In this document: positions 1,152-34,748 of the stretch, piece by piece
How positions within the stretch are numbered: position 1 is the first letter of the stretch
Layout: each line of letters opens with the position of its first letter
Virus record (IMG/VR): IMGVR_UViG_2541047827_000012
Source: a virus
Lineage: Duplodnaviria; Heunggongvirae; Uroviricota; Caudoviricetes
Strand: one strand, 5' to 3'
DNA: 39,749 nt
Translations under genes and position numbers: made by a program
Notes under the pieces: generated by a model
The model's input: the letters and a program-made list of their open reading frames with translations, nothing else
What the model was told of the DNA's origin: nothing
Database searches by the model: none

Positions 1152-1858
1152 CTATAAGGCTCTCTTACCAGCCGCGCCCTAACAGGCGCACACGATCTGA
1201 CATTTGCATCCAACTTCGTTACTTACGGCCCGTAAACGGGCTGCCCGGATAGGGAATCGATAACTGCTCTCCCATTTTATCCTCTTCAAGCTGGTGCTTT
1301 ATGTAATCCTGTATCTTCGCCGTGTTCTTACCCACTGTATCGACGTAGTACCCTCTGCACCAGAACTCCCTGTTCCTGTATTTGAATTTCAAATCACCAA
1401 ACTGCTCGTAAAGCATCAGACTGCTTTTCCCTTTCAGATATCCCATAAACCCGGATACGCTCATTTTAGGCGGGATCTCCACAAGCATATGGATATGATC
1501 TGCACAGCATTCAGCTTCCAGAATCCGTACGCTTTTCCACTCACACAGCTTTCTCAAAATACTGCCTATTGCTCTACGCTTCTCTCTGTAGAACACCTGT
1601 CTTCGGTATTTTGGCGCAAAAACTATGTGATATTTACAGTTCCATCGGGTGTGCGCTAAGCTCTTTTCGTTCCCCATTGGGACCCCCTTTTGATTTCTTG
1701 TTTGACACTTGCAGTTGCCAGACCGCAAGGTGTTTTAACAAATCAAAAGGGGTTTTAATAACTGGCTCAAAGCTGAAAGCTTTCCGGAACCCCCAGCCTA
1801 GCTGGGGGTTTTCTGTGCACAAAAAACCCTCTGTAGTAACAGAGGGTTTTGTTCATTC
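1152..1858 (-). mobile_element. IS200 insertion sequence (IS200/IS605 family), ends approximate
   Basis: Contains the IS200 TnpA gene; upstream of tnpA are the two hairpins expected at the IS200 left end (CCCCCAGC/GCTGGGGG at 1790-1808 and A-run/CCCTCTGT-agta-ACAGAGGG/T-run at 1821-1850). About 707 bp fits IS200; exact ends not determined. Confidence 0.7.
1219..1677 (-). CDS. tnpA: IS200 transposase TnpA (Y1 HUH transposase), 152 aa
   Basis: Translation MGNEKSLAHTRWNCKYHIVFAPKYRR...HIHMLVEIPPK...GYYVDTVGKNTAKIQDYIKHQLEEDKMGEQLSIPYPGSPFTGRK matches IS200 TnpA as I recall it; the HxH and catalytic Tyr regions are present; start chosen at the internal ATG (1677) with SD AGGGGG, not the track start at 1728. 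Confidence 0.9.
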   Translation of the reverse strand: MGNEKSLAHTRWNCKYHIVFAPKYRRQVFYREKRRAIGSILRKLCEWKSVRILEAECCADHIHMLVEIPPKMSVSGFMGYLKGKSSLMLYEQFGDLKFKYRNREFWCRGYYVDTVGKNTAKIQDYIKHQLEEDKMGEQLSIPYPGSPFTGRK

Positions 1859-4296: not shown

Positions 4297-6482
4297 GAAA
4301 CTTCCCCATTGGTTGAAAATATGGCTCCTCCAACGCCAAGTGTATTTCGTGTTGTGCTCAACCTCAGAGGGCTGGAGTCAGAATTAGAATATCCTGTAGC
4401 AGAAATAAAAGATCCTCCACTAATAGTCAACTGCGGAACATCGGCTATATCTGAATAAGTTCTGTCAGCAACAGTATTATTTATAGCCACATATGATCCA
4501 AAAAAACTTCTTATTGTTTGGTTTTTAACTTTACTTCCTTCAATGGTTATCCTACTACCACAGTCGGCAATAAATCCTGAATCTGCATCCAGCGTTGCAT
4601 TCATAAAAGAAGCTTCAGATCTCTCTACATCAATCCATCTAATATCTTTTGTGGGATTTGCACCAAATACATGACAAATATTAGAGTTAAACCTTACACC
4701 ATCTTGGAGGTGCATTAATTTTTTTATATCTGTACCCCATAGCCTTGGAAAATTAACAGATGCTCCTGCATGGCAATCAAATCCCAGCTCAGCCCCTGAG
4801 ATATCTACAGCCTTTCCTGAAATAACAGCACCAGTGTCTGCATTAACGGCTGTTCCACAATTGCGCATATCATTACCAGCAACATCAACGCAACCCGCAC
4901 CATCAATACGCACACCAAGTGCACATCCATAAAAACCTTTTTCAATATTTGGTTCAAGGACTTTACCACTTGTTTCTGCATCACTTTCTTCAACGTCATG
5001 TCGTCTTGCATCAACATATGCTGTATGAATGCAGGTTAATCCACGATATGAGCAATGTATAGTTTTATGGTCGCGTATATTAACATTTGAACCATCTCTT
5101 ACATTCCATCCTATATAACAATAGCTTGCACTTGACCCCTGAAAATCTGCTTTAACATTATAAATACAATTAACTGACGCAACCGTACTCTCTGTGCACC
5201 GTTCAAACTTGCTTACAGGCATTGATGCCTTGACATTATTTACCAGTTGCAGGGAAGAGTATCTGCTATAAGAAAAATCACATACGTAATACCCTTCTGG
5301 CATATATGCAGCAACACTTTCCTCATCAGGAGCACATCCGGTATGATATGCACTAATTTTTGCACCAAAACTACCATGAATTCCAACGTAGAACTTTCGA
5401 GCACCTGAATACGGATAGAAATTAAGTTCAGCTTTTTGAGTTACAATAAATGCACAAACATCGCTATCATCTCTATTTTCTTCGATCTGAATAGCAAATA
5501 CAGGACTTTTTGCTGCATCGCAAATGTAAAATAAATACTTGTATTCGTAATACGTTCTAACGATTTTAGTAAACAAACGAGTGTCAGAGAAAACCACTGA
5601 GTCTTCTGATGTTATTTTAATCCAAGACAAATCAACACCTGAACTGAATTCAATTTGATAGTTGATAATATGCCCGGTCTTAATTCTTATTTCGCAGAAA
5701 GCATTACCACCATCCCACATAGGTCTCATTGACTGGGCTGCAATGATTGCATCTTTGAGTGTAGGGTAATCACCCCATTCGCCAACAGTAATAACAAAAG
5801 TATAATATGAGTTAAAAACAGCGGCATTTTTGCCTTTGGATATCAACTCCTTAATCATAAAAATATTATCTTCGTAATCACAAGGAGAAATTATATCCCT
5901 CATTTTGCTTTGAAATGTTCGTTGTCTTGCCCCGCTTCCTGACGGTATAAACCAACCAAAACCACCAACAACCCCGGCGATTGCAGCATCGACATAATTA
6001 CGCATTGAGCGATTATTTACAGCGTCCTGCTCAAATGATGGATCTGCAAGGTTAGAAATTTTGTTTTGCTTTGCATCGTAATATTTTGCAAGCAAAGATG
6101 GTTTCATCAATGCACGTCTGAACCACCCAAAACATCGCTGGATCAGCATCGTCAGGTAGTCAAATGCATCTTCATGAACTTCGGGGAAAAATTTTCCCTG
6201 ATTGCGAAGATCAGTCTCCTGCACCACATCAAGCACACGCTCTATCGTAATTCGCCAGCCAGCAGCAAGCGGCGACGGGAGAACCACTTCACCGCCACTA
6301 TAAGTGCCCGCTCCAGTTACCTTATAACCGGTATCCAGAACCAATTCTGTTACGTTCCCGTTCAGGTCAGACACCTGAACAACCAGGTCGGTTTTTTTGA
6401 AAATACGGAAGGTATACGGAAATGATGTCGTAACGCCGTTACCGGTGTATTCGTTGTGGTCAACTTCGGTTGAGACCGTCAT
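4293..6482 (-). CDS. Tailspike/tail fiber: conserved T7 gp17-like N-terminal domain plus divergent C-terminal receptor-binding domain
   Basis: 729 aa; N-terminus MTVSTEVDHNEYTGNGVTTSFPYTFRIFK...DTGYKVTG follows the tail-fiber N-terminal adaptor pattern; C-terminal 500 aa is AT-rich with Gly/Ser/Asn/Cys-rich repeats typical of beta-helix receptor-binding domains. Confidence 0.8.
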   Translation of the reverse strand: MTVSTEVDHNEYTGNGVTTSFPYTFRIFKKTDLVVQVSDLNGNVTELVLDTGYKVTGAGTYSGGEVVLPSPLAAGWRITIERVLDVVQETDLRNQGKFFPEVHEDAFDYLTMLIQRCFGWFRRALMKPSLLAKYYDAKQNKISNLADPSFEQDAVNNRSMRNYVDAAIAGVVGGFGWFIPSGSGARQRTFQSKMRDIISPCDYEDNIFMIKELISKGKNAAVFNSYYTFVITVGEWGDYPTLKDAIIAAQSMRPMWDGGNAFCEIRIKTGHIINYQIEFSSGVDLSWIKITSEDSVVFSDTRLFTKIVRTYYEYKYLFYICDAAKSPVFAIQIEENRDDSDVCAFIVTQKAELNFYPYSGARKFYVGIHGSFGAKISAYHTGCAPDEESVAAYMPEGYYVCDFSYSRYSSLQLVNNVKASMPVSKFERCTESTVASVNCIYNVKADFQGSSASYCYIGWNVRDGSNVNIRDHKTIHCSYRGLTCIHTAYVDARRHDVEESDAETSGKVLEPNIEKGFYGCALGVRIDGAGCVDVAGNDMRNCGTAVNADTGAVISGKAVDISGAELGFDCHAGASVNFPRLWGTDIKKLMHLQDGVRFNSNICHVFGANPTKDIRWIDVERSEASFMNATLDADSGFIADCGSRITIEGSKVKNQTIRSFFGSYVAINNTVADRTYSDIADVPQLTISGGSFISATGYSNSDSSPLRLSTTRNTLGVGGAIFSTNGEVS

Positions 6483-6586
6483 GTTAAATCTCCAGATAGT
6501 CGCAGCACCCGTTGCGCCGCATATCTGGTTATTCTATTACCTGTAAAACCACATATGGATAGAAAGACTGTAAATACGAATAGATA

Positions 6587-6601
6587 TTACCTTTCAGGTA
6601 A
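6587..6601. promoter_or_regulatory. Operator-like palindrome TTACCTTTCAGGTAA
   Basis: Perfect TTACC-N5-GGTAA inverted repeat about 40 bp upstream of the LexA box and antirepressor-paralog gene. Confidence 0.6.
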
Positions 6602-6638
6602 TTTGCAAAACGTGCTGGATAGCAAACAAATTATTTGA

Positions 6639-6658
6639 TACTGTATAAATATACAGTT
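6639..6658. promoter_or_regulatory. LexA (SOS) box
   Basis: TACTGTATAAATATACAGTT matches the CTGT-N8-ACAG LexA consensus; 20 bp upstream of ATG 6678 and overlaps a TATAAA -10-like element. Confidence 0.7.
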
Positions 6659-6677
6659 ATTGCATGGAGAAGATAAG

Positions 6678-6935
6678 ATGCAGCAGTATCACTATCCACT
6701 GGAAGACGGATTTACCGAAAGGATTCACACGCCGGGAGGCGTCAGGTCACTGGTGGAGGGATCGCACTTGATGAAATTACTCCGGGATCTCGATAAGGAT
6801 GGATTTAATGTCGATGGCCCACTTGCCGAACTGACTGCACTGATTAACTACGTCACCAGCTCACAGATGTCTATGCGGGATCTGCAAACACATCTCGACT
6901 ATTGTGCCGAACAATTACGAAAACAAACCAGATAA
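6678..6935 (+). CDS. Antirepressor C-terminal-domain paralog (lacks Bro-N domain), 85 aa
   Basis: SD GGAG before ATG 6678; sequence ...GVRSLVEGSHLMKLLRDLDKDGFNVDGPLAELTALINYV...RDLQTHLDY aligns at roughly 40-45 percent identity to the last 85 residues of the Bro-N protein at 7249..7935. Confidence 0.6.
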   Translation: MQQYHYPLEDGFTERIHTPGGVRSLVEGSHLMKLLRDLDKDGFNVDGPLAELTALINYVTSSQMSMRDLQTHLDYCAEQLRKQTR

Positions 6936-6966
6936 GGTTTGCAATTGCCAAGTGGAGTGCTTATAT

Positions 6967-6981
6967 TTACCTTTGCGGTAA
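6967..6981. promoter_or_regulatory. Operator-like palindrome TTACCTTTGCGGTAA
   Basis: Perfect TTACC-N5-GGTAA in the 312-bp non-coding stretch between the paralog and the antirepressor gene. Confidence 0.55.
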
Positions 6982-7248
6982 ATTTACATCGCACTCCTCT
7001 TGTGCCATAGTAATCGGGCACTGGCAAAATCCAGTGCCGGGATTGGCGTCCCGAGTTACTACAGAGGCACATATGCCGCATAAGCGGTTTTTTTTATGTG
7101 TAAAGCGCACCTATTCTATGGTGGGCTGTGTGGGGGCACCGAAAGGTGCGCCGGGTCCTTTGTAGCCGGTTACGCCAACCCTGCACAGTTCACCACCAAC
7201 CGATTGGCGTCGGTAGTGGTGATTAACCTAACTACAAAGGTGATCACT

Positions 7249-7935
7249 ATGACTGCTAACGTAACCCCATCTGTTTTTCATTTTGAATCAGAAGCAACCA
7301 TTCGAGCCATTGTTATTGATGGAAATCCTTGGTTTGTTGCCAAAGACGTTATTAAAGCTCTTCAACTGACAAACCCCACTATGTCAATAAAATCTCTTGA
7401 TGATGATGAAAGGGCTAAATTTAACTTAGGCCGTCAAGGCGAAACCAATATTATCAACGAGTCAGGCCTCTACACACTGATCCTCCGCTGCCGCGATGCA
7501 GTAACACCAGGCACTATCCCCTACCGCTTTCGCAAATGGGTTACAGGTGAGGTTCTTCCTCAGATCCGCCGCACCGGAAGTTACATTAAAAACTCGCTCC
7601 CGCAGGAAGAACGCATAAAGATGGTTGCCGACCAGGTTGCAAACGCCACAGCATCAGCAGTGATGCAGGCAATGAAGATAGAGAACAAAACCTACAGCGC
7701 CCCACTGAAGCCCGGCTACCGCAGCCTGATTCATTCGCCGTCTGGTGTTCTCGGCCTGACGGAGAACTCACTGCTGATGAATTTGCTGAACCAGTTACAG
7801 GAAGACGGGCATGACGTATCGGGCGCGGCGGCGGAGCTGACTACCATGTTCTGCTACATCGTCGGTGTGAGCAAATGCCTGCGTGATATCCAGACGCACG
7901 CGGAGTACATCAACGACAAGGCAGGGTTCTTCTGA
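7249..7935 (+). CDS. Antirepressor (Bro-N domain plus KilA-C-like C-terminal domain)
   Basis: SD AAAGGTGA before ATG 7249; Bro-N pattern FHFESEATIRAIVIDGNPWFVAKDVIKALQL...ESGLYTLILRCRDAVTPGTIPYRFRKWVTGEVLPQIRRTGSYI. Confidence 0.8.
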   Translation: MTANVTPSVFHFESEATIRAIVIDGNPWFVAKDVIKALQLTNPTMSIKSLDDDERAKFNLGRQGETNIINESGLYTLILRCRDAVTPGTIPYRFRKWVTGEVLPQIRRTGSYIKNSLPQEERIKMVADQVANATASAVMQAMKIENKTYSAPLKPGYRSLIHSPSGVLGLTENSLLMNLLNQLQEDGHDVSGAAAELTTMFCYIVGVSKCLRDIQTHAEYINDKAGFF

Positions 7936-8008
7936 CAGAACGGCGGCACAGGGATGTGCCTTTAAATAATTCTGTACAGATTGCAGACCGGGGGTGAATA
8001 GCGTACTA

Positions 8009-8023
8009 TTACCTTAAAGGTAA
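8009..8023. promoter_or_regulatory. Operator-like palindrome TTACCTTAAAGGTAA overlapping a putative promoter
   Basis: Perfect TTACC-N5-GGTAA; putative -35 TTGCAG (7981-7986) and -10 TACTAT (8004-8009) with 17-bp spacing put the site over the -10 and start of the 8050 operon. Confidence 0.55.
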
Positions 8024-8049
8024 ACCATGTGTTTACATGAGGAGGAGAT

Positions 8050-8259
8050 ATGGGATTTTGGTTCGCTCGTACAAAAACGAGGGATAATGCACCCAGCCCT
8101 CAGGCAAAAAATGCAGAAGTTCCGGCGTCAGCGCAGGTTAACAAGCGTGGTGGTGTGTATATCTCATCACAGCAAATTTCTGAGCTTCCTGAGGTTAAGG
8201 AGATGCGTCGTCTCGCTGCTGCAATCGTTAAACAGGATCTTGCCACTGTAAGGAAATAG
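8050..8259 (+). CDS. Hypothetical 69-aa protein, first gene of accessory operon
   Basis: Strong SD GAGGAGGAG 6 nt before ATG 8050; stop overlaps start of the next gene. Confidence 0.5.
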   Translation: MGFWFARTKTRDNAPSPQAKNAEVPASAQVNKRGGVYISSQQISELPEVKEMRRLAAAIVKQDLATVRK

Positions 8260-9125
8260 TGTTGTTAGCTCTTCTAATTATCCCCATTCTGGTTAGTGGT
8301 TATATTATGATAACCGCTAACCAGTATCATTATTTCCGTTTATACCGACATGAAGGCCAGCTTCTTTATATGAAAGTAGCTGCATTAGGTACATATTGCC
8401 TTGTTGCTTCGGTAATAATTGCCGCATTTATAAAATATAAATATCCTGATTTTCACCTAGTTCACGATATGGTGGAAACTTTTAATGTAACGTCAAAACC
8501 AGAAACAGATAGAATTTACATGTGGCTGCTTCTTCTCTCAGCCACATCCATTTGCTTCTCTTTGTGTTATGTGTCTGTTGTGTGGGTGAAAGATTTTCTT
8601 CTTGGTTGTTTTTATAAACGTGATATTTATGAGCAAAAAACAGAGGCAATGAAGGCCAGAGTACTGCGAAAAACTTACTCGCAAGGTTCTTTAGACTTAC
8701 TATTGCTTGATGCTATTGAATCGGATCCTAAACGACCAATGCTGATTACTTTATCATCAAACAAAGTGTATGTTGGAATAATAAATGGTTCTGGTGAACC
8801 AACGGAAAATCAGGGTCCGCATCAGCACATATCTTTTGTTCCTTTAATGTCAGGATACAGGAACAAAGACAACTTATCTGTCACATTCACTAATGCTTAT
8901 CCAGGAGAAATACAGGTCAAGCGGACTGCAGCAATAAGAGGAATTAGCAGAAAGAAAGTGCCAGGACTTGAGATCATGGTGTCTATTGACGAAATAAGTT
9001 ATATATCATGGTTTGATTTTGAAGTATATAAAGCAACAAATAACAAAGTAGAATCCAGGGGGCACGTTATTCGTGTTACCAAAAATGGAAGAAATATATA
9101 TCAAAGAAATAGCAAAAAAGAATAG
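8259..9125 (+). CDS. Membrane-anchored protein of unknown function (N-terminal TM helices plus 160-aa soluble domain)
   Basis: GTG start at 8259 overlapping upstream stop (SD AGGA 8251-8254); about 3 hydrophobic helices in the first 110 aa; markedly AT-rich versus flanking phage DNA; followed by a terminator. Confidence 0.6.
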   Translation: MLLALLIIPILVSGYIMITANQYHYFRLYRHEGQLLYMKVAALGTYCLVASVIIAAFIKYKYPDFHLVHDMVETFNVTSKPETDRIYMWLLLLSATSICFSLCYVSVVWVKDFLLGCFYKRDIYEQKTEAMKARVLRKTYSQGSLDLLLLDAIESDPKRPMLITLSSNKVYVGIINGSGEPTENQGPHQHISFVPLMSGYRNKDNLSVTFTNAYPGEIQVKRTAAIRGISRKKVPGLEIMVSIDEISYISWFDFEVYKATNNKVESRGHVIRVTKNGRNIYQRNSKKE

Positions 9126-25971: not shown

Positions 25972-25986
25972 TTACCTTTCAGGTAA
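25972..25986. promoter_or_regulatory. Operator-like palindrome TTACCTTTCAGGTAA at head-operon promoter
   Basis: Identical 15-mer to the site at 6587; lies upstream (minus direction) of the 25881/portal operon next to a TTGACA hexamer. Confidence 0.55.
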
Positions 25987-26308: not shown

Positions 26309-26385
26309 GTGGCATTAGCTCAGTTGGACAGAGCAACCGCCTTCTAAGCGGTTGGTCGCAGGTTCGAATCCTGCATGCCACGCCA
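26309..26385 (+). tRNA. tRNA-Arg (anticodon TCT, reads AGA)
   Basis: Cloverleaf folded by hand: acceptor GTGGCAT/ATGCCAC, D-arm GCTC-AGTTGGACA-GAGC, anticodon stem ACCGC/GCGGT with loop CTTCTAA, T-arm GCAGG-TTCGAAT-CCTGC, discriminator G plus CCA. Confidence 0.9.
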
Positions 26386-31590: not shown

Positions 31591-31605
31591 TTACCTCTGA
31601 GGTAA
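31591..31605. promoter_or_regulatory. Operator-like palindrome TTACCTCTGAGGTAA
   Basis: Perfect TTACC-N5-GGTAA, 4 bp upstream of the nuclease start codon and overlapping its RBS. Confidence 0.55.
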
Positions 31606-31652
31606 TTAAAAACCACATAAGACACTAAATCAATAGAATTTAGAATATTTTG

Positions 31653-31667
31653 TTACCCAATAGGTAA
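31653..31667. promoter_or_regulatory. Operator-like palindrome TTACCCAATAGGTAA
   Basis: Perfect TTACC-N5-GGTAA in the 117-bp gap between the P-like and nuclease genes. Confidence 0.55.
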
Positions 31668-33574: not shown

Positions 33575-33589
33575 TTACCTTTGAGGTAC
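33575..33589. promoter_or_regulatory. Operator-like site TTACCTTTGAGGTAC (one mismatch)
   Basis: TTACC-N5-GGTAc between the Cro-like terminator and the next early gene. Confidence 0.4.
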
Positions 33590-33593
33590 GAAT

Positions 33594-33622
33594 AGATATG
33601 AAAAGACCGCCGGGTGGCGGTC
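33594..33622 (-). terminator. Rho-independent terminator after the Cro-like gene (tR1-like position)
   Basis: GACCGCC-ggg? hairpin (GACCGCC/GGCGGTC at 33605-33622) followed on the minus strand by TTTTCAT. Confidence 0.5.
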
Positions 33623-33644
33623 TACAGAGGGTTGTAGCTGGATA

Positions 33645-33875
33645 TCATGAGTAGAAGAAGTATGCCAGTTCTGCTTTTGAGCGCAGCCATTGTCTTGTTT
33701 TACAGGCTTTAAAAAGCCCATTCATCAATACTTTACCTGGCATTTTGCGCTTACCTGTTAAGTGAGTCTGGATATAGTGACTCGTCGTTCCGGCTTCCTG
33801 TGCGAAGGCTTCACGCTCATCCGGAGTAAGTGCAAGCCAGTGCTTTTTGAAATCGAAATGTCCGTTATCGCTCAT
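33645..33875 (-). CDS. Cro-like HTH regulator (YdaS/Cro family)
   Basis: 76 aa; ...EREAFAQEAGTTSHYIQTHLTGKRKMPGK... parallels the lambda Cro HTH; divergent from the repressor gene across a three-operator region. Confidence 0.6.
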   Translation of the reverse strand: MSDNGHFDFKKHWLALTPDEREAFAQEAGTTSHYIQTHLTGKRKMPGKVLMNGLFKACKTRQWLRSKAELAYFFYS

Positions 33876-33911
33876 AGCTATTGCCTGATATTTATTTCAG
33901 ATAATAAATAT

Positions 33912-33974
33912 TCACCCATAAGGTAACAAAAATCAAGGATAGTTACCTATGAGGTGCATTTACCTGTTGGGTAA
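33912..33974. promoter_or_regulatory. Three clustered operator sites between the Cro-like and repressor genes (OR-like)
   Basis: 33912-33926 tCACC-N5-GGTAA, 33943-33957 TTACC-N5-GGTgc, 33960-33974 TTACC-N5-GGTAA; centre spacings 31 and 17 bp. Confidence 0.6.
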
Positions 33975-34029: not shown

Positions 34030-34614
34030 ATGAAAAGTATCCAGGACGTCCGCAGGCAAAATCTCAACGACTTGATCGACCGTGAATTCAATGGTGTTCA
34101 GACGCGGATGGCAGAAAAACTTGGAACTCAGGCAAATCTGGTAAACCGCTGGGCTCTTGGCAAGAAGGTTATCGGCGACCAGGTTGCACGAAAAATTGAA
34201 GCTGCCGCCAATAAACCCCGTAACTGGCTTGATATTGATCGCTCGCTTTCTCAGGAGGGTTTTCAGCCTGTCGGCCCGAGCGATATAGGTCAGCTGGCGG
34301 CTCACAACCTGGAACGCTGGATGAGCGAAAGCCGCGACCTTTCAACGCAGGGAAAACTACACCGCGCATCCGGCGTCGCCCAGGTGACAATCAGCCGCCT
34401 GTTAAACAATGAGGTCAGCGTTTCCATTTCCACCCTGGAGAATGTTGCATCCGCATTCGGGCGTCACGGCTATGAATTACTGATTCACCCGCACGACCCT
34501 GCGACCATCAACTATGATCGCTCGCGCTACGCATTGTTACCCGAAACCGAGAAAGCAAAGATCGAAAGTTACATTGAATTTGTCATCAACCAGAACGAAA
34601 AAAACAAACAATAA
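34030..34614 (+). CDS. Prophage repressor, double-HTH, no S24 peptidase domain (CI-like position)
   Basis: 194 aa with two HTH-like segments; no Ala-Gly cleavage site or Ser/Lys peptidase motifs seen; flanked by operator clusters; followed by a terminator. Confidence 0.65.
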   Translation: MKSIQDVRRQNLNDLIDREFNGVQTRMAEKLGTQANLVNRWALGKKVIGDQVARKIEAAANKPRNWLDIDRSLSQEGFQPVGPSDIGQLAAHNLERWMSESRDLSTQGKLHRASGVAQVTISRLLNNEVSVSISTLENVASAFGRHGYELLIHPHDPATINYDRSRYALLPETEKAKIESYIEFVINQNEKNKQ

Positions 34615-34671: not shown

Positions 34672-34686
34672 TTACCTAATGGGTAA
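34672..34686. promoter_or_regulatory. Operator-like palindrome TTACCTAATGGGTAA (OL-like, distal)
   Basis: Perfect TTACC-N5-GGTAA upstream of the TTGACA hexamer at 34706-34711. Confidence 0.55.
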
Positions 34687-34733
34687 TTTTTTTAACTCAT
34701 ATCTATTGACATCAAACCAGATACGCATAATTA

Positions 34734-34748
34734 TTACCTCAACGGTAA
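34734..34748. promoter_or_regulatory. Operator-like palindrome TTACCTCAACGGTAA overlapping the early rightward promoter (OL-like, proximal)
   Basis: Perfect TTACC-N5-GGTAA just downstream of TTGACA-N17 and followed by a GGTAAC half-site within the RBS of the first early ORF. Confidence 0.55.

Follow-up and report, generated by a model that had tools for sequence, protein, structure and literature searches.

A probable RNA control region of the isrK and C4 families upstream of the antirepressor gene of an epsilon15/phiV10-like phage

INTRODUCTION

What occupies the 312-bp spacer directly upstream of ant, a predicted antirepressor gene in the phage sequence IMGVR_UViG_2541047827_000012, and does it control that gene? 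The stretch of DNA analyzed (39,749 nucleotides, referred to as the window) belongs to an epsilon15/phiV10-like phage (Uetakevirus), which is temperate and has Escherichia coli as its host. RNA control of antirepressors is known from other phages. In the P1/P7 c4 and Gifsy-1 isrK systems, an RNA that is processed out of the ant leader or made in one transcript with it pairs via two short loops with sequences farther downstream. In P22, the sar RNA is read from the strand opposite ant and spans the ribosome-binding site of that gene. An initial annotation of the spacer had listed an operator copy, a hairpin, a second hairpin followed by T8, and a GNRA-tetraloop hairpin, and had suggested a regulatory RNA or attenuator by comparison with P22. 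Here, we find that the module is of the P1 immI and Gifsy-1 IsrK type and not an antisense RNA of the P22 sar type. The spacer very probably serves the antirepressor operon as its RNA control region, with a layout like that of P1/P7 immI and the Gifsy-1 isrK locus.

RESULTS

Two curated RNA families match the spacer

The plus strand of the spacer matched two curated Rfam families, isrK and C4 antisense RNA (Table 1). The isrK match scored 74.2 bits (GA 50) over model positions 1-77 of 77, and the C4 match scored 79.5 bits (GA 45; E = 4e-14) over model positions 1-87 of 87. The folding z-score of the 245-nt transcript was -4.68, a value equaled by none of 200 shuffles. With Rfam E-values of ~1e-14 and this z-score, the structure of the spacer is not due to chance. 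A third family, c4-a1b1 (RF03163), matched the 5′ half of isrK with 44.3 bits, just under its GA of 46.7, and scored 39 to 50.6 bits in relatives; the window has the functional hallmarks of this motif, with a1 located in the hairpin 2 loop and b1 following directly on its 3′ side. Other than C4, isrK, and a1b1, Rfam returned nothing at E < 0.1 on either strand. In the isrK family, a read-through transcript extends into a downstream antirepressor gene, and the short RNA pairs beyond its own terminator; Hfq binding is a further trait. The complementarities that such pairing would use here, a1:a′ and b1:b′, are present and covary.

Table 1. Features of the spacer and of ant, with positions in the window
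Feature	Position	Strand	Evidence or remark
Candidate upstream promoter	6939-6967	+	TTGCAA, 17 nt, TATATT; consensus scan, 9/12 matches
Operator palindrome TTACCTTTGCGGTAA	6967-6981	.	Putative site for phage immunity repressor or Cro
Candidate IsrK promoter	6983-7011	+	Scan: -35 TTTACA 6983-6988, 17-nt spacer, -10 CATAGT 7006-7011
IsrK RNA, a1/b1-bearing leader	7018-7095	+	RF01394, match 7018-7094
IsrK hairpin 1, GGCACTGG/CCAGTGCC	about 7017-7038	+	Sequence and RF01394
IsrK hairpin 2	7038-7053	+	a1 in loop
a1 site UUGGCGU	7043-7049	+	IsrK hairpin 2 loop; exact 7-nt complement of a′
b1 site CUACAGAGG	7059-7067	+	IsrK linker, 7 nt before terminator stem
Intrinsic terminator GCCGC-AUAA-GCGGU	7075-7088; U8 (T8) 7088-7095	+	Terminator scan, independent of Rfam
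C4 antisense RNA	7114-7200	+	RF01695
C4 outer stem P1, 17 bp	7119-7135 with 7179-7195	+	RF01695
C4 helix P2, GNRA hairpin GCACC-GAAA-GGUGC	7136-7149	+	RF01695
C4 hairpin P3 (7150-7170)	7150-7154/7166-7170	+	RF01695
b′ recognition loop CCUUUGUAG	7157-7165	+	In C4 P3 loop
a′ segment ACGCCAA	7172-7178	+	Single-stranded, 3′ of P3
a2 target UUGGCGU	7204-7210	+	Exact 7-nt complement of a′
Conserved box GUGGUGAU, consensus GGUGGYGA	7216-7223	+	GGUGG invariant in 11 loci
b2 target CUACAAAGG	7232-7240	+	Overlaps ant Shine-Dalgarno; exact 9-nt complement of b′
ant Shine-Dalgarno AAGGUGA	7237-7243	+	Overlapped by b2
ant, Bro-N domain antirepressor, 228 aa	7249-7935	+	Pfam Bro-N, 5e-20

The four features of the initial annotation are all present, within about 1 nt. 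IsrK hairpin 2, the C4 outer stem, C4 P3, and the complementary target boxes are additional parts. By homology to the annotated c4 of P1, the mature C4 is predicted to span 7120-7197 (78 nt). Members of the C4 family yield a mature RNA of ~77 nt that is released from the leader by RNase P and blocks translation.

The pairing of both RNAs is maintained among relatives. All 27 C4 pairs were 100% paired in 16 phages, with double changes in 13 of them; none of 500 shuffles reached this result, and slid controls were 35-50% paired. The 17 pairs of IsrK were 94.5% paired across 15 phages, with double changes in 7. In the window, the Bro-N antirepressor gene is co-oriented with C4 and begins 49 nt past it. 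The order isrK then C4, on the strand of the downstream ant, Bro-N, or Rha gene, was found in 17 of the 17 related phage loci fetched, and Gifsy-1 likewise carries isrK then C4. The initial annotation had named a lack of spacer conservation among the findings that would count against a regulatory role; the spacer is instead conserved and covarying across many phages, which does not refute the regulatory reading.

An immunity operator adjoins the likely IsrK promoter

The window has 16 copies of the operator motif TTACCnnnnnGGTAA (searched as TTACCTN3AGGTAA, with ≤2 mismatches allowed) compared with 0.89 expected, and 0 of 100 shuffles reached 16. Three of these copies lie between divergent genes, 33645-33875 on the minus strand and an HTH_3 repressor candidate at 34030-34614 on the plus strand. 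Judged by its sequence, the motif in the spacer is the operator motif of this immunity region. Its half-sites are kept in five relatives, and its center is variable.

The operator adjoins the likely promoter of IsrK, which has a TG-extended -10 element and a predicted start at G7018. The -35 and -10 hexamers of this candidate are essentially invariant in six relatives. Gifsy-1 has the same -10-to-+1 geometry, and its published mutant numbering sets +1 at the first position of the Rfam model (PMC4825925). The 13-nt 5′ flank of the c4-a1b1 model overlaps the predicted -10 element here and would not be transcribed from the proximal promoter. Farther upstream, the -10 element and start region of a second candidate promoter overlap the operator. 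Its -10 element is roughly kept in relatives, which weakly suggests that it may be a promoter. The gene directly upstream of the spacer is LexA-controlled.

Coding and opposite-strand readings of the spacer

The statement that the spacer contains no convincing ORF holds, as spacer ORFs vary in length and frame among relatives. One coding reading is an N-terminally extended Ant that starts at ATG 7096; ORF 7096-7935 reads into ant in the same frame with no intervening stop. However, this ATG directly follows U8 and lacks a Shine-Dalgarno sequence, and the equivalent ORF ends after 4-37 codons in five close relatives. The other is a short leader peptide, modeled on Gifsy-1 orf45 or P1 icd, that is translationally coupled to ant. 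Gifsy-1 orf45 begins at an AUG that is conserved in the 5′ end of C4 and corresponds to AUG 7118 here, but the ORF from this AUG has 15 codons in the window and 8 to 227 elsewhere. Small CDSs are annotated over the region in some public records; against these, substitutions track base-pairing rather than codons, and both b′ and b2 tolerate indels of a single base. With neither frame nor length of the spacer ORFs conserved, we rejected protein coding as extremely unlikely. Pfam gave no significant match for the small ORFs 6678-6935, 8050-8259, and 8259-9125.

The spacers of phiV10, TL-2011b, Tyrion, and RefSeq E. coli records are blank or lie under spurious small CDSs. One such CDS is labeled “ash family protein.”

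On a P22 sar-like reading, ant would be repressed by a small RNA that is made from the minus strand and runs over the ant start. The position of the spacer would fit, as this short-tailed temperate phage has its antirepressor gene directly downstream of it. The P22 immI region (sar, arc, mnt, ant) is likewise a podovirus secondary immunity region with a small RNA at the antirepressor. All of the conserved covarying structure, however, is on the plus strand, in C4 and isrK. No sigma-70-like promoter was found on the minus strand in a scan of 6400-8300, and the sar family of Rfam had no match at E ≤ 10 on either strand. We therefore rejected this reading, which we regard as exceedingly improbable. 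The general idea of a regulatory RNA or attenuator ahead of ant is borne out by isrK, C4, and the terminator, whereas the P22 sar model that accompanied it is not, both RNAs being encoded on the ant strand.

Recognition boxes covary across phages

The a1 and b1 sites of IsrK amount to a second copy of the C4 targets, placed just 5′ of the U8 terminator. In the window, the 9-nt match of b′ with b2 was equaled in length in only 5 of 5,000 flank shuffles. The b1:b′ duplex has 9 bp, including one G·U, and an energy of -13.0 kcal/mol; its exact match is only 5 nt, a length that is frequent by chance.

We compared the boxes in 19 loci, comprising the window and 18 other phage loci, P1 included. The a′/a1/a2 and b′/b1/b2 sets vary together over 15 distinct a′/b′ combinations. 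Exact 7-nt complements of a′, of which there are six variants, were present both upstream (a1) and downstream (a2) in 19 of 19 loci; cognate matches were always 7 nt, and non-cognate matches reached at most 6 nt. The complement of b′ over the ribosome-binding site (b2) measured 6-10 nt, with 16% of non-cognate pairs reaching the cognate minimum. In the IsrK linker, the longest exact complement of b′ (b1) was 4-9 nt, and 4-5 nt in four loci including the window. Exact-match scoring of b′ and b1 did not separate cognate from non-cognate pairs in these 19 loci, a test that is undiscriminating because b1 often has G·U pairs or shorter matches.

Individual changes run through all three boxes. In phiV10, ZX5, and TL-2011b, one base is missing in b′, b1, and b2 alike. 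In Tyrion and a Klebsiella phage, a′ has changed from CG to GA, and a1 and a2 have changed to match. In all loci checked, b2 sits 9-20 nt upstream of the start codon of the downstream gene. We propose that immunity specificity is set by the a′/b′ sequences and varies from one related phage to another. Differences in these boxes should make the window, phiV10, and Tyrion types hetero-immune at this locus of secondary immunity.

Possible alternative pairing in the ant leader

The product of ant is 82% identical to ORF4 of ZX5, overexpression of which reduced lysogeny (PMC9782041). A small hairpin in the ant leader (7200-7213; stem CCGA/UCGG) displays a2 in its loop, and in Tyrion and the Klebsiella phage the stem shows a compensatory change to CUGA/UCAG. 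The 5′ part of b2 lies within the loop of a leader hairpin. This hairpin is supported in the window and close relatives but not firmly over all loci, and RNAalifold gave a weak consensus for the leader (-2.3 kcal/mol, 7 pairs).

Folding indicated that the leader hairpin hides the Shine-Dalgarno sequence even without C4. This agrees with a reading in which the terminator constitutively insulates ant from the upstream LexA-controlled gene and the remaining elements are degenerate remnants of an inactive c4 module. We consider inactivity very improbable, as every recognition box is intact and cognate and the locus is conserved, occurring at ≥80% coverage in at least 391 complete E. coli genomes. 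Furthermore, the boxes have co-evolved as triplets in close relatives, which requires ongoing selection on pairing.

The leader also contains the conserved GGUGGYGA box. Against the 3′ strand of C4 (UCACCAC) the box can form 7-9 of 9 possible pairs, and against the segment before the AUG (the spacer between the ant Shine-Dalgarno and AUG) its duplex energies range from -4 to -12 kcal/mol. Where the box has changed from U to C, both pairing partners show a matching change. We infer from these complementarities that the box may pair alternatively with the C4 3′ strand or the ant Shine-Dalgarno-AUG spacer. When C4 was co-folded with either the ant leader or IsrK in RNAcofold, there was no net stabilization, a result that is uninformative rather than negative because loop-loop (pseudoknotted) pairing is outside its model.

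Comparison with P1/P7, Gifsy-1, and c4-a1b1

The P1 record annotates a1, b1, c4, a2, and b2 in the same order as in the window. The P1/P7 immI region (c4, icd, ant1/ant2; Citron & Schuster 1990; RF01695) shares with the window an operator, promoter(s), the five elements, and an antirepressor on one strand; a three-helix C4 with b′ in the P3 loop and a′ single-stranded 3′ of b′; a b2 over a Shine-Dalgarno sequence; and a specificity set by a′/b′. In P1, the leader ORF icd lies between b2 and ant, and repression of icd stops ant transcription by Rho-dependent polarity. In contrast, the window has no icd and no ORF between C4 and ant, and b2 is on the ant Shine-Dalgarno itself. The antirepressor proteins also differ, that of the window being of the Bro-N type. 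Moreover, in the window a strong terminator separates a1/b1 from C4, giving a predicted discrete IsrK RNA, and a GGUGGYGA box is present that P1 lacks.

The isrK-orf45-anrP locus of Gifsy-1 resembles the window in having an IsrK with a1/b1 and a terminator, a C4 homolog (STnc1160, 69 bits), a2, a GGUGGUGA box, and b2, which lies on the Shine-Dalgarno sequence of the antirepressor gene. The compensatory mutants G28A/C162U and G31A/C159U have been published for Gifsy-1 (Hershko-Shalev et al. 2016, PMC4825925). Both of these experimentally proven pairs, G28-C162 and G31-C159, map exactly onto a1:a′. Supplying IsrK in trans increased the translation of anrP 139-fold, and the 45-codon orf45, which starts inside C4 and ends on the anrP start codon, was reported to be translationally coupled (PMC4825925). 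In the window, by contrast, the orf45 equivalent runs for 15 codons and ends within the b′ loop, 84 nt before ant. AnrP and the Ant of the window are unrelated in sequence, and the contexts differ: Gifsy-1 is lambdoid with the locus beside antQ, whereas the locus of the window, a Uetakevirus, is beside the tailspike. The c4-a1b1 motif (Weinberg et al. 2010, PMC2864571) has, as here, two hairpins, a1 in the second loop and b1 3′ of it, and sits upstream of a C4 RNA.

DISCUSSION

By analogy with P1 and Gifsy-1, IsrK and C4 most likely act together to keep the downstream antirepressor gene untranslated. The transcripts, the processing, the translational repression, and the decoy role of IsrK in the following scheme are modeled on these two systems. 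Transcription would begin at about G7018, from the promoter adjoining the immunity-repressor operator. Most transcripts would end at the U8 terminator and yield an IsrK RNA of ~78 nt, and read-through transcripts would include C4 and the ant leader. C4 would fold into a tRNA-like three-helix RNA, probably once RNase P has processed its 5′ end, as happens in P1, and its b′ and a′ would pair with b2 and a2 of the ant leader. We propose that ant would stay untranslated, and the prophage repressor active, because of the overlap between b2 and the Shine-Dalgarno sequence. IsrK, carrying a1 and b1, most likely competes for C4, such that the IsrK:C4 ratio would set the amount of Ant. The idea that a1/b1 act as a decoy dates from Citron & Schuster 1990, according to the supplement of PMC2864571. 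Since icd and orf45 are both absent here, the P1 and Gifsy-1 mechanisms are not simply transferable.

Phage P4 offers a different use of similar parts. Its CI RNA, like C4, is a processed tRNA-like RNA from the leader that it controls, with complementary boxes up- and downstream (seqA/seqC). In P4, CI makes transcription terminate prematurely, and an antirepressor plays no part. Applied to the window, C4 would bind nascent a1/b1 and promote termination at the IsrK terminator, making the module mainly a self-limiting transcriptional attenuator with IsrK as a by-product instead of a decoy. The end of b1 lies just 7 nt from the terminator stem, and the remaining anatomy is compatible with attenuation, which does not exclude translational repression by C4. 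The IsrK paper points out the similarity to P4 SeqA/CI and considers such a role for STnc1160, and Gifsy-1 IsrK in trans raised transcription 8-fold in addition to translation (PMC4825925). However, constitutive co-expression of STnc1160 in Gifsy-1 made IsrK-mediated growth arrest stronger, not weaker (PMC4825925), and we established no conserved antiterminator for C4 to break. Because b2 is directly on the Shine-Dalgarno sequence in every locus, translational control is indicated as the primary output, and we consider it unlikely that the module is mainly an attenuator.

More tentatively, isrK-type modules may be three-state RNA switches and not plain antisense repressors, a possibility that we favor less than its negation. 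If so, the folding of C4 in cis would decide, via the GGUGGYGA box, whether the ant start is hidden, and the switch would be flipped by IsrK, acting as a terminated decoy with a1/b1. The mechanisms of P1 c4 and Gifsy-1 IsrK would then be unified, orf45 coupling would be a peculiarity of Gifsy-1, and read-through from the upstream LexA-controlled gene would provide a link to SOS.

The module in the spacer is an ordinary, unannotated copy of a system that has already been described. Its practical value is therefore one of annotation, and it opens no new biological question. Its recognition identifies the published mutational data on Gifsy-1 IsrK as a1:a′ pairs of a c4 system and would explain the silence of the Uetakevirus Bro-N antirepressor in lysogens.

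IsrK and C4 antisense RNA in the spacer

When the whole window was searched against Rfam, the phage RNA families isrK and C4 antisense RNA gave full-length matches, both above the curated gathering score (GA), in the 312-bp spacer (6936-7248) between the antirepressor paralogue gene and ant. A permissive scan placed the c4-a1b1 target motif slightly below its GA and returned no further credible Rfam match on either strand of the spacer. The 245 nt from 7018 to 7262 folded better than their own shuffles (z = -4.68), none of 200 of which folded equally well.

The initial annotation had described an operator copy and three hairpins in a spacer with no convincing ORF, and had proposed a regulatory RNA on the model of the P22 antisense RNA. 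All of these elements are present; the terminator scan agrees on the hairpin followed by T8, and the ORFs in the spacer are short or unconserved. The three hairpins are, in order, IsrK hairpin 1, the IsrK terminator, and C4 helix P2, while a second IsrK hairpin, the 17-bp C4 outer stem, and C4 hairpin P3 had been overlooked. The regulatory RNA idea holds; the P22 sar analogue was rejected. Two RNA families that have been curated and studied by experiment are present here as an unannotated copy, and an element of this kind is already known. In public records, the spacer is empty, has a terminator as its sole annotation, or is overlaid with small CDSs.

Features of the antirepressor locus and related sites (positions in the window)
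Feature	Position	Strand	Sequence	Remark
LexA (SOS) box	6639-6658		TACTGTATAAATATACAGTT	near consensus
Antirepressor paralogue ORF	6678-6935			85 aa
Weaker upstream promoter candidate	6939-6967			overlaps operator
Palindrome (candidate operator)	6967-6981		TTACCTTTGCGGTAA	
Promoter-like site (candidate)	6983-7011	+	TTTACA, 17 nt, TG-extended CATAGT	promoter scan
c4-a1b1 motif (RF03163)	7005-7057			44.3 bits; GA 46.7
IsrK hairpin 1	7017-7038		GGCACTGG/CCAGTGCC	
isrK (RF01394)	7018-7094	+		74.2 bits; GA 50
a1	7043-7049		UUGGCGU	loop of IsrK hairpin 2
b1	7059-7067		CUACAGAGG	7 nt 5′ of terminator stem; 9 bp with b′, one G.U among them
IsrK terminator	7075-7095		GCCGC-AUAA-GCGGU, T8	
C4 (RF01695)	7114-7200	+		79.5 bits; GA 45
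C4 helix P2	7136-7149		GCACC-GAAA-GGUGC	GNRA hairpin
b′	7157-7165		CCUUUGUAG	loop of C4 hairpin P3
a′	7172-7178		ACGCCAA	single-stranded, 3′ of C4 P3
a2	7204-7210		UUGGCGU	exact complement of a′; loop of small CCGA/UCGG hairpin
GGUGGYGA box	7216-7223		GUGGUGAU	
Leader hairpin	7218-7229/7238-7248			predicted fold
b2	7232-7240		CUACAAAGG	exact complement of b′; overlaps ant SD AAGGUGA (7237-7243)
ant start codon	7249		ATG	
Candidate immunity repressor gene	34030-34614	+		194 aa; HTH_3 domain
Further TTACCnnnnnGGTAA copies	6587-6601, 8009-8023, 25972-25986, 31591-31667, 33575-33974, 34672-34748			

Recognition boxes and their covariation

The C4 recognition segments a′ and b′ have complementary sites in IsrK (a1, b1) and in the ant leader (a2, b2), with predicted duplex energies of -10 to -13 kcal/mol. 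Among 5,000 shuffles of the flank, a 9-nt b′/b2 match arose 5 times; for the 7-nt a′ matches, the counts were 28 and 69 of 5,000.

We then fetched 17 spacer-like loci from Uetakeviruses, Stx and other lambdoid phages, APSE-2, and one Yersinia, one Klebsiella, and one Actinobacillus phage. Every locus carries isrK and, ~20-25 nt on, C4, co-oriented with a downstream ant, Bro-N, or Rha gene; both RNAs have been reported beside a Bro-N gene in APSE phages (PMC7313666). C4 keeps all 27 of its pairs (100% paired) across 16 sequences, and at 13 of them both sides have changed; no shuffle (0/500) matched this, and slid controls were 35-50% paired. IsrK retains 94.5% of its pairs, with double changes in seven. 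Separately, the Stx2a phage locus Stx2_EH0505 has a match to sRNA-Xcc1 (RF02221; 75.7 bits) 3′ of ant, at 1543-1626.

Adding the window and P1 to the fetched set gave 19 loci in which box covariation was counted. An exact 7-nt complement of a′ lies both upstream and downstream in all 19, and a 6-10-nt complement of b′ lies over the ribosome-binding site in all 19. Within the IsrK linker, the longest exact complement of b′ spans 4-9 nt and does not exceed 4-5 nt in four loci including the window. The 19 loci hold 15 distinct a′/b′ combinations, and non-cognate a′ matches reach at most 6 nt, never the cognate 7. In phiV10, ZX5, and TL-2011b, one G is missing from b′ and the matching base is missing from b1 and b2. 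In Tyrion and the Klebsiella phage, a′ is AGACCAA rather than ACGCCAA, a1 and a2 are both UUGGUCU rather than UUGGCGU, and the a2-presenting stem is CUGA/UCAG rather than CCGA/UCGG. Such triplet changes in close relatives require selection on the RNA-RNA pairings, and the boxes therefore define an immunity specificity.

All isrK-type loci also have a GGUGGYGA box shortly 3′ of a2. It has two alternative potential pairing partners, the C4 outer stem (3′ strand; 7-9 of 9 positions) and the ant SD-AUG spacer (-4 to -12 kcal/mol); a U-to-C variant in other phages is compensated on both partners. In the window, the leader hairpin is predicted to conceal the ant SD even without C4. Together, these pairings and the hairpin tentatively suggest an alternative-structure switch, comparable to "structure A/B" of the Gifsy-1 paper, in which the box may form an ON/OFF alternative structure.

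Promoter and operator

The candidate promoter is almost invariant in six relatives and would start transcripts at about G7018, where the isrK model begins; Gifsy-1 has the same -10-to-+1 geometry. The palindrome lies two bases 5′ of its -35 hexamer. Its motif, TTACCnnnnnGGTAA, is strongly overrepresented in the window (16 sites versus 0.89 expected). The antirepressor module is flanked by two of them, and another three sit in the intergenic region of the divergent pair 33645-33875 (-) and 34030-34614 (+), the second of which encodes the HTH_3 protein. Because of these intergenic copies, the palindrome is most likely an operator of the immunity repressor or Cro. Centered near -44, it could either repress or activate the proximal promoter; P1 likewise has a C1 operator at its tandem c4 promoters. 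For the candidate repressor, Pfam returned HTH_3 but no self-cleaving peptidase domain, which would fit induction via antirepressors rather than repressor cleavage.

Genomic setting

The window belongs to an E. coli podovirus of the epsilon15/phiV10 type (Uetakevirus). Its region 6500-8300 is 93-97% identical to Phi05_1387 B, TL-2011b, ZX5, phiV10, and O157 typing phages and 79% identical to Enterobacter phage Tyrion. The locus occurs in 998 of 5,426 complete E. coli genomes, with at least 80% coverage in 391 of these. The product of ant (7249-7935) has a Bro-N domain and is 82% identical to ZX5 ORF4, overexpression of which reduced lysogeny in a published experiment (PMC9782041).

The product of the ORF 5′ of the spacer is paralogous to the C-terminal domain of Ant (41% identity, E = 2e-16). 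The LexA box just 5′ of it is kept in phiV10, ZX5, and Tyrion, and the ORF is likely an SOS-induced small antirepressor. As no plus-strand terminator was found between this ORF and IsrK, SOS transcripts may continue into isrK-c4-ant. In TL-2011b (locus 1937-2850), an insertion of ~0.9 kb separates the small LexA-controlled ORF from the operator and isrK; the antirepressor units are therefore two modules that can be separated. Elsewhere, the phage genome carries a full-length Rfam match to the Hfq-binding sRNA STnc490 at 1687-1810 (-) (146 bits, GA 56) and a tRNA-Arg gene (anticodon TCT) at 26309-26385 (+).

Comparison with Gifsy-1 and P1

The Salmonella prophage Gifsy-1 has the same layout on the minus strand, with IsrK at 34316-34240 and a C4 homologue at 34214-34131 (-; 69 bits), followed by a2, the same GGUGGUGA box, and b2 on the anrP SD. 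By its sequence, the stable RNA STnc1160 of the orf45 region (PMC4825925) is a genuine homologue of C4 antisense RNA. Counting from the first base of IsrK agrees with the published positions (two orf45 AUGs at 107 and 119) and places G28 and G31 within a1 (U26-U32) and C159 and C162 within a′ (A158-A164). The compensatory mutant pairs G28A/C162U and G31A/C159U (PMC4825925) are therefore a1:a′ pairs.

The P1 genome record has the same annotated order (a1, b1, C4, a2, b2); in P1, too, the P3 loop contains b′, and b2 covers a ribosome-binding site. Unlike in the window, the icd leader ORF separates b2 from ant in P1, and Gifsy-1 has a 45-codon ORF from an AUG conserved in the C4 5′ end to the anrP start codon. 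From that AUG (7118), the window ORF has 15 codons, with its stop falling within the b′ loop; lengths vary from 8 to 227 codons among the loci. The ATG at 7096, directly 3′ of the IsrK U8, opens a stop-free 279-aa frame (7096-7935) through C4 and in frame with ant. No SD precedes this ATG, and in five relatives the equivalent ORF ends after 4-37 codons; the window ORF from 7096, unique to the window, is probably accidental. The window thus has the features of the RNA families and lacks the coupling features of P1 icd and Gifsy-1 orf45. With no leader ORF, the target is therefore the ant ribosome-binding site itself.

Proposed mechanism

Our model builds on what was observed of the module: its RNA families and their structures, the complementary and covarying boxes, the position of the target, and the operator. 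Transcription of the operon would begin at ~7018, and the majority of transcripts would stop at U8 to yield IsrK. Read-through would yield C4 and the ant leader, with mature C4 presumably processed to 7120-7197, as predicted by homology to the annotated 77-nt P1 RNA. C4 would bind a2 and b2 and block the ant SD, repressing translation so that no antirepressor is made. IsrK a1/b1 would compete for a′/b′, tuning or relieving repression, a decoy idea credited for P1 to Citron and Schuster (1990) in the supplement of PMC2864571. In Gifsy-1, anrP translation rose 139-fold and transcription 8-fold when IsrK was provided in trans (PMC4825925), the effect expected of a C4 decoy. That paper compared the locus to satellite phage P4, not to P1 c4. 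In a P4-like mechanism, C4 would pair with a1/b1 on the nascent leader and increase termination at U8, which may coexist with decoy-tuned translational repression.

Only three points are mildly new: the window has no leader ORF, the Gifsy-1 mutants map onto a1:a′, and the box with alternative pairings is conserved. Window Ant and Gifsy-1 AnrP are unrelated in sequence, and the RNA module is therefore a cassette used with different antirepressor genes.
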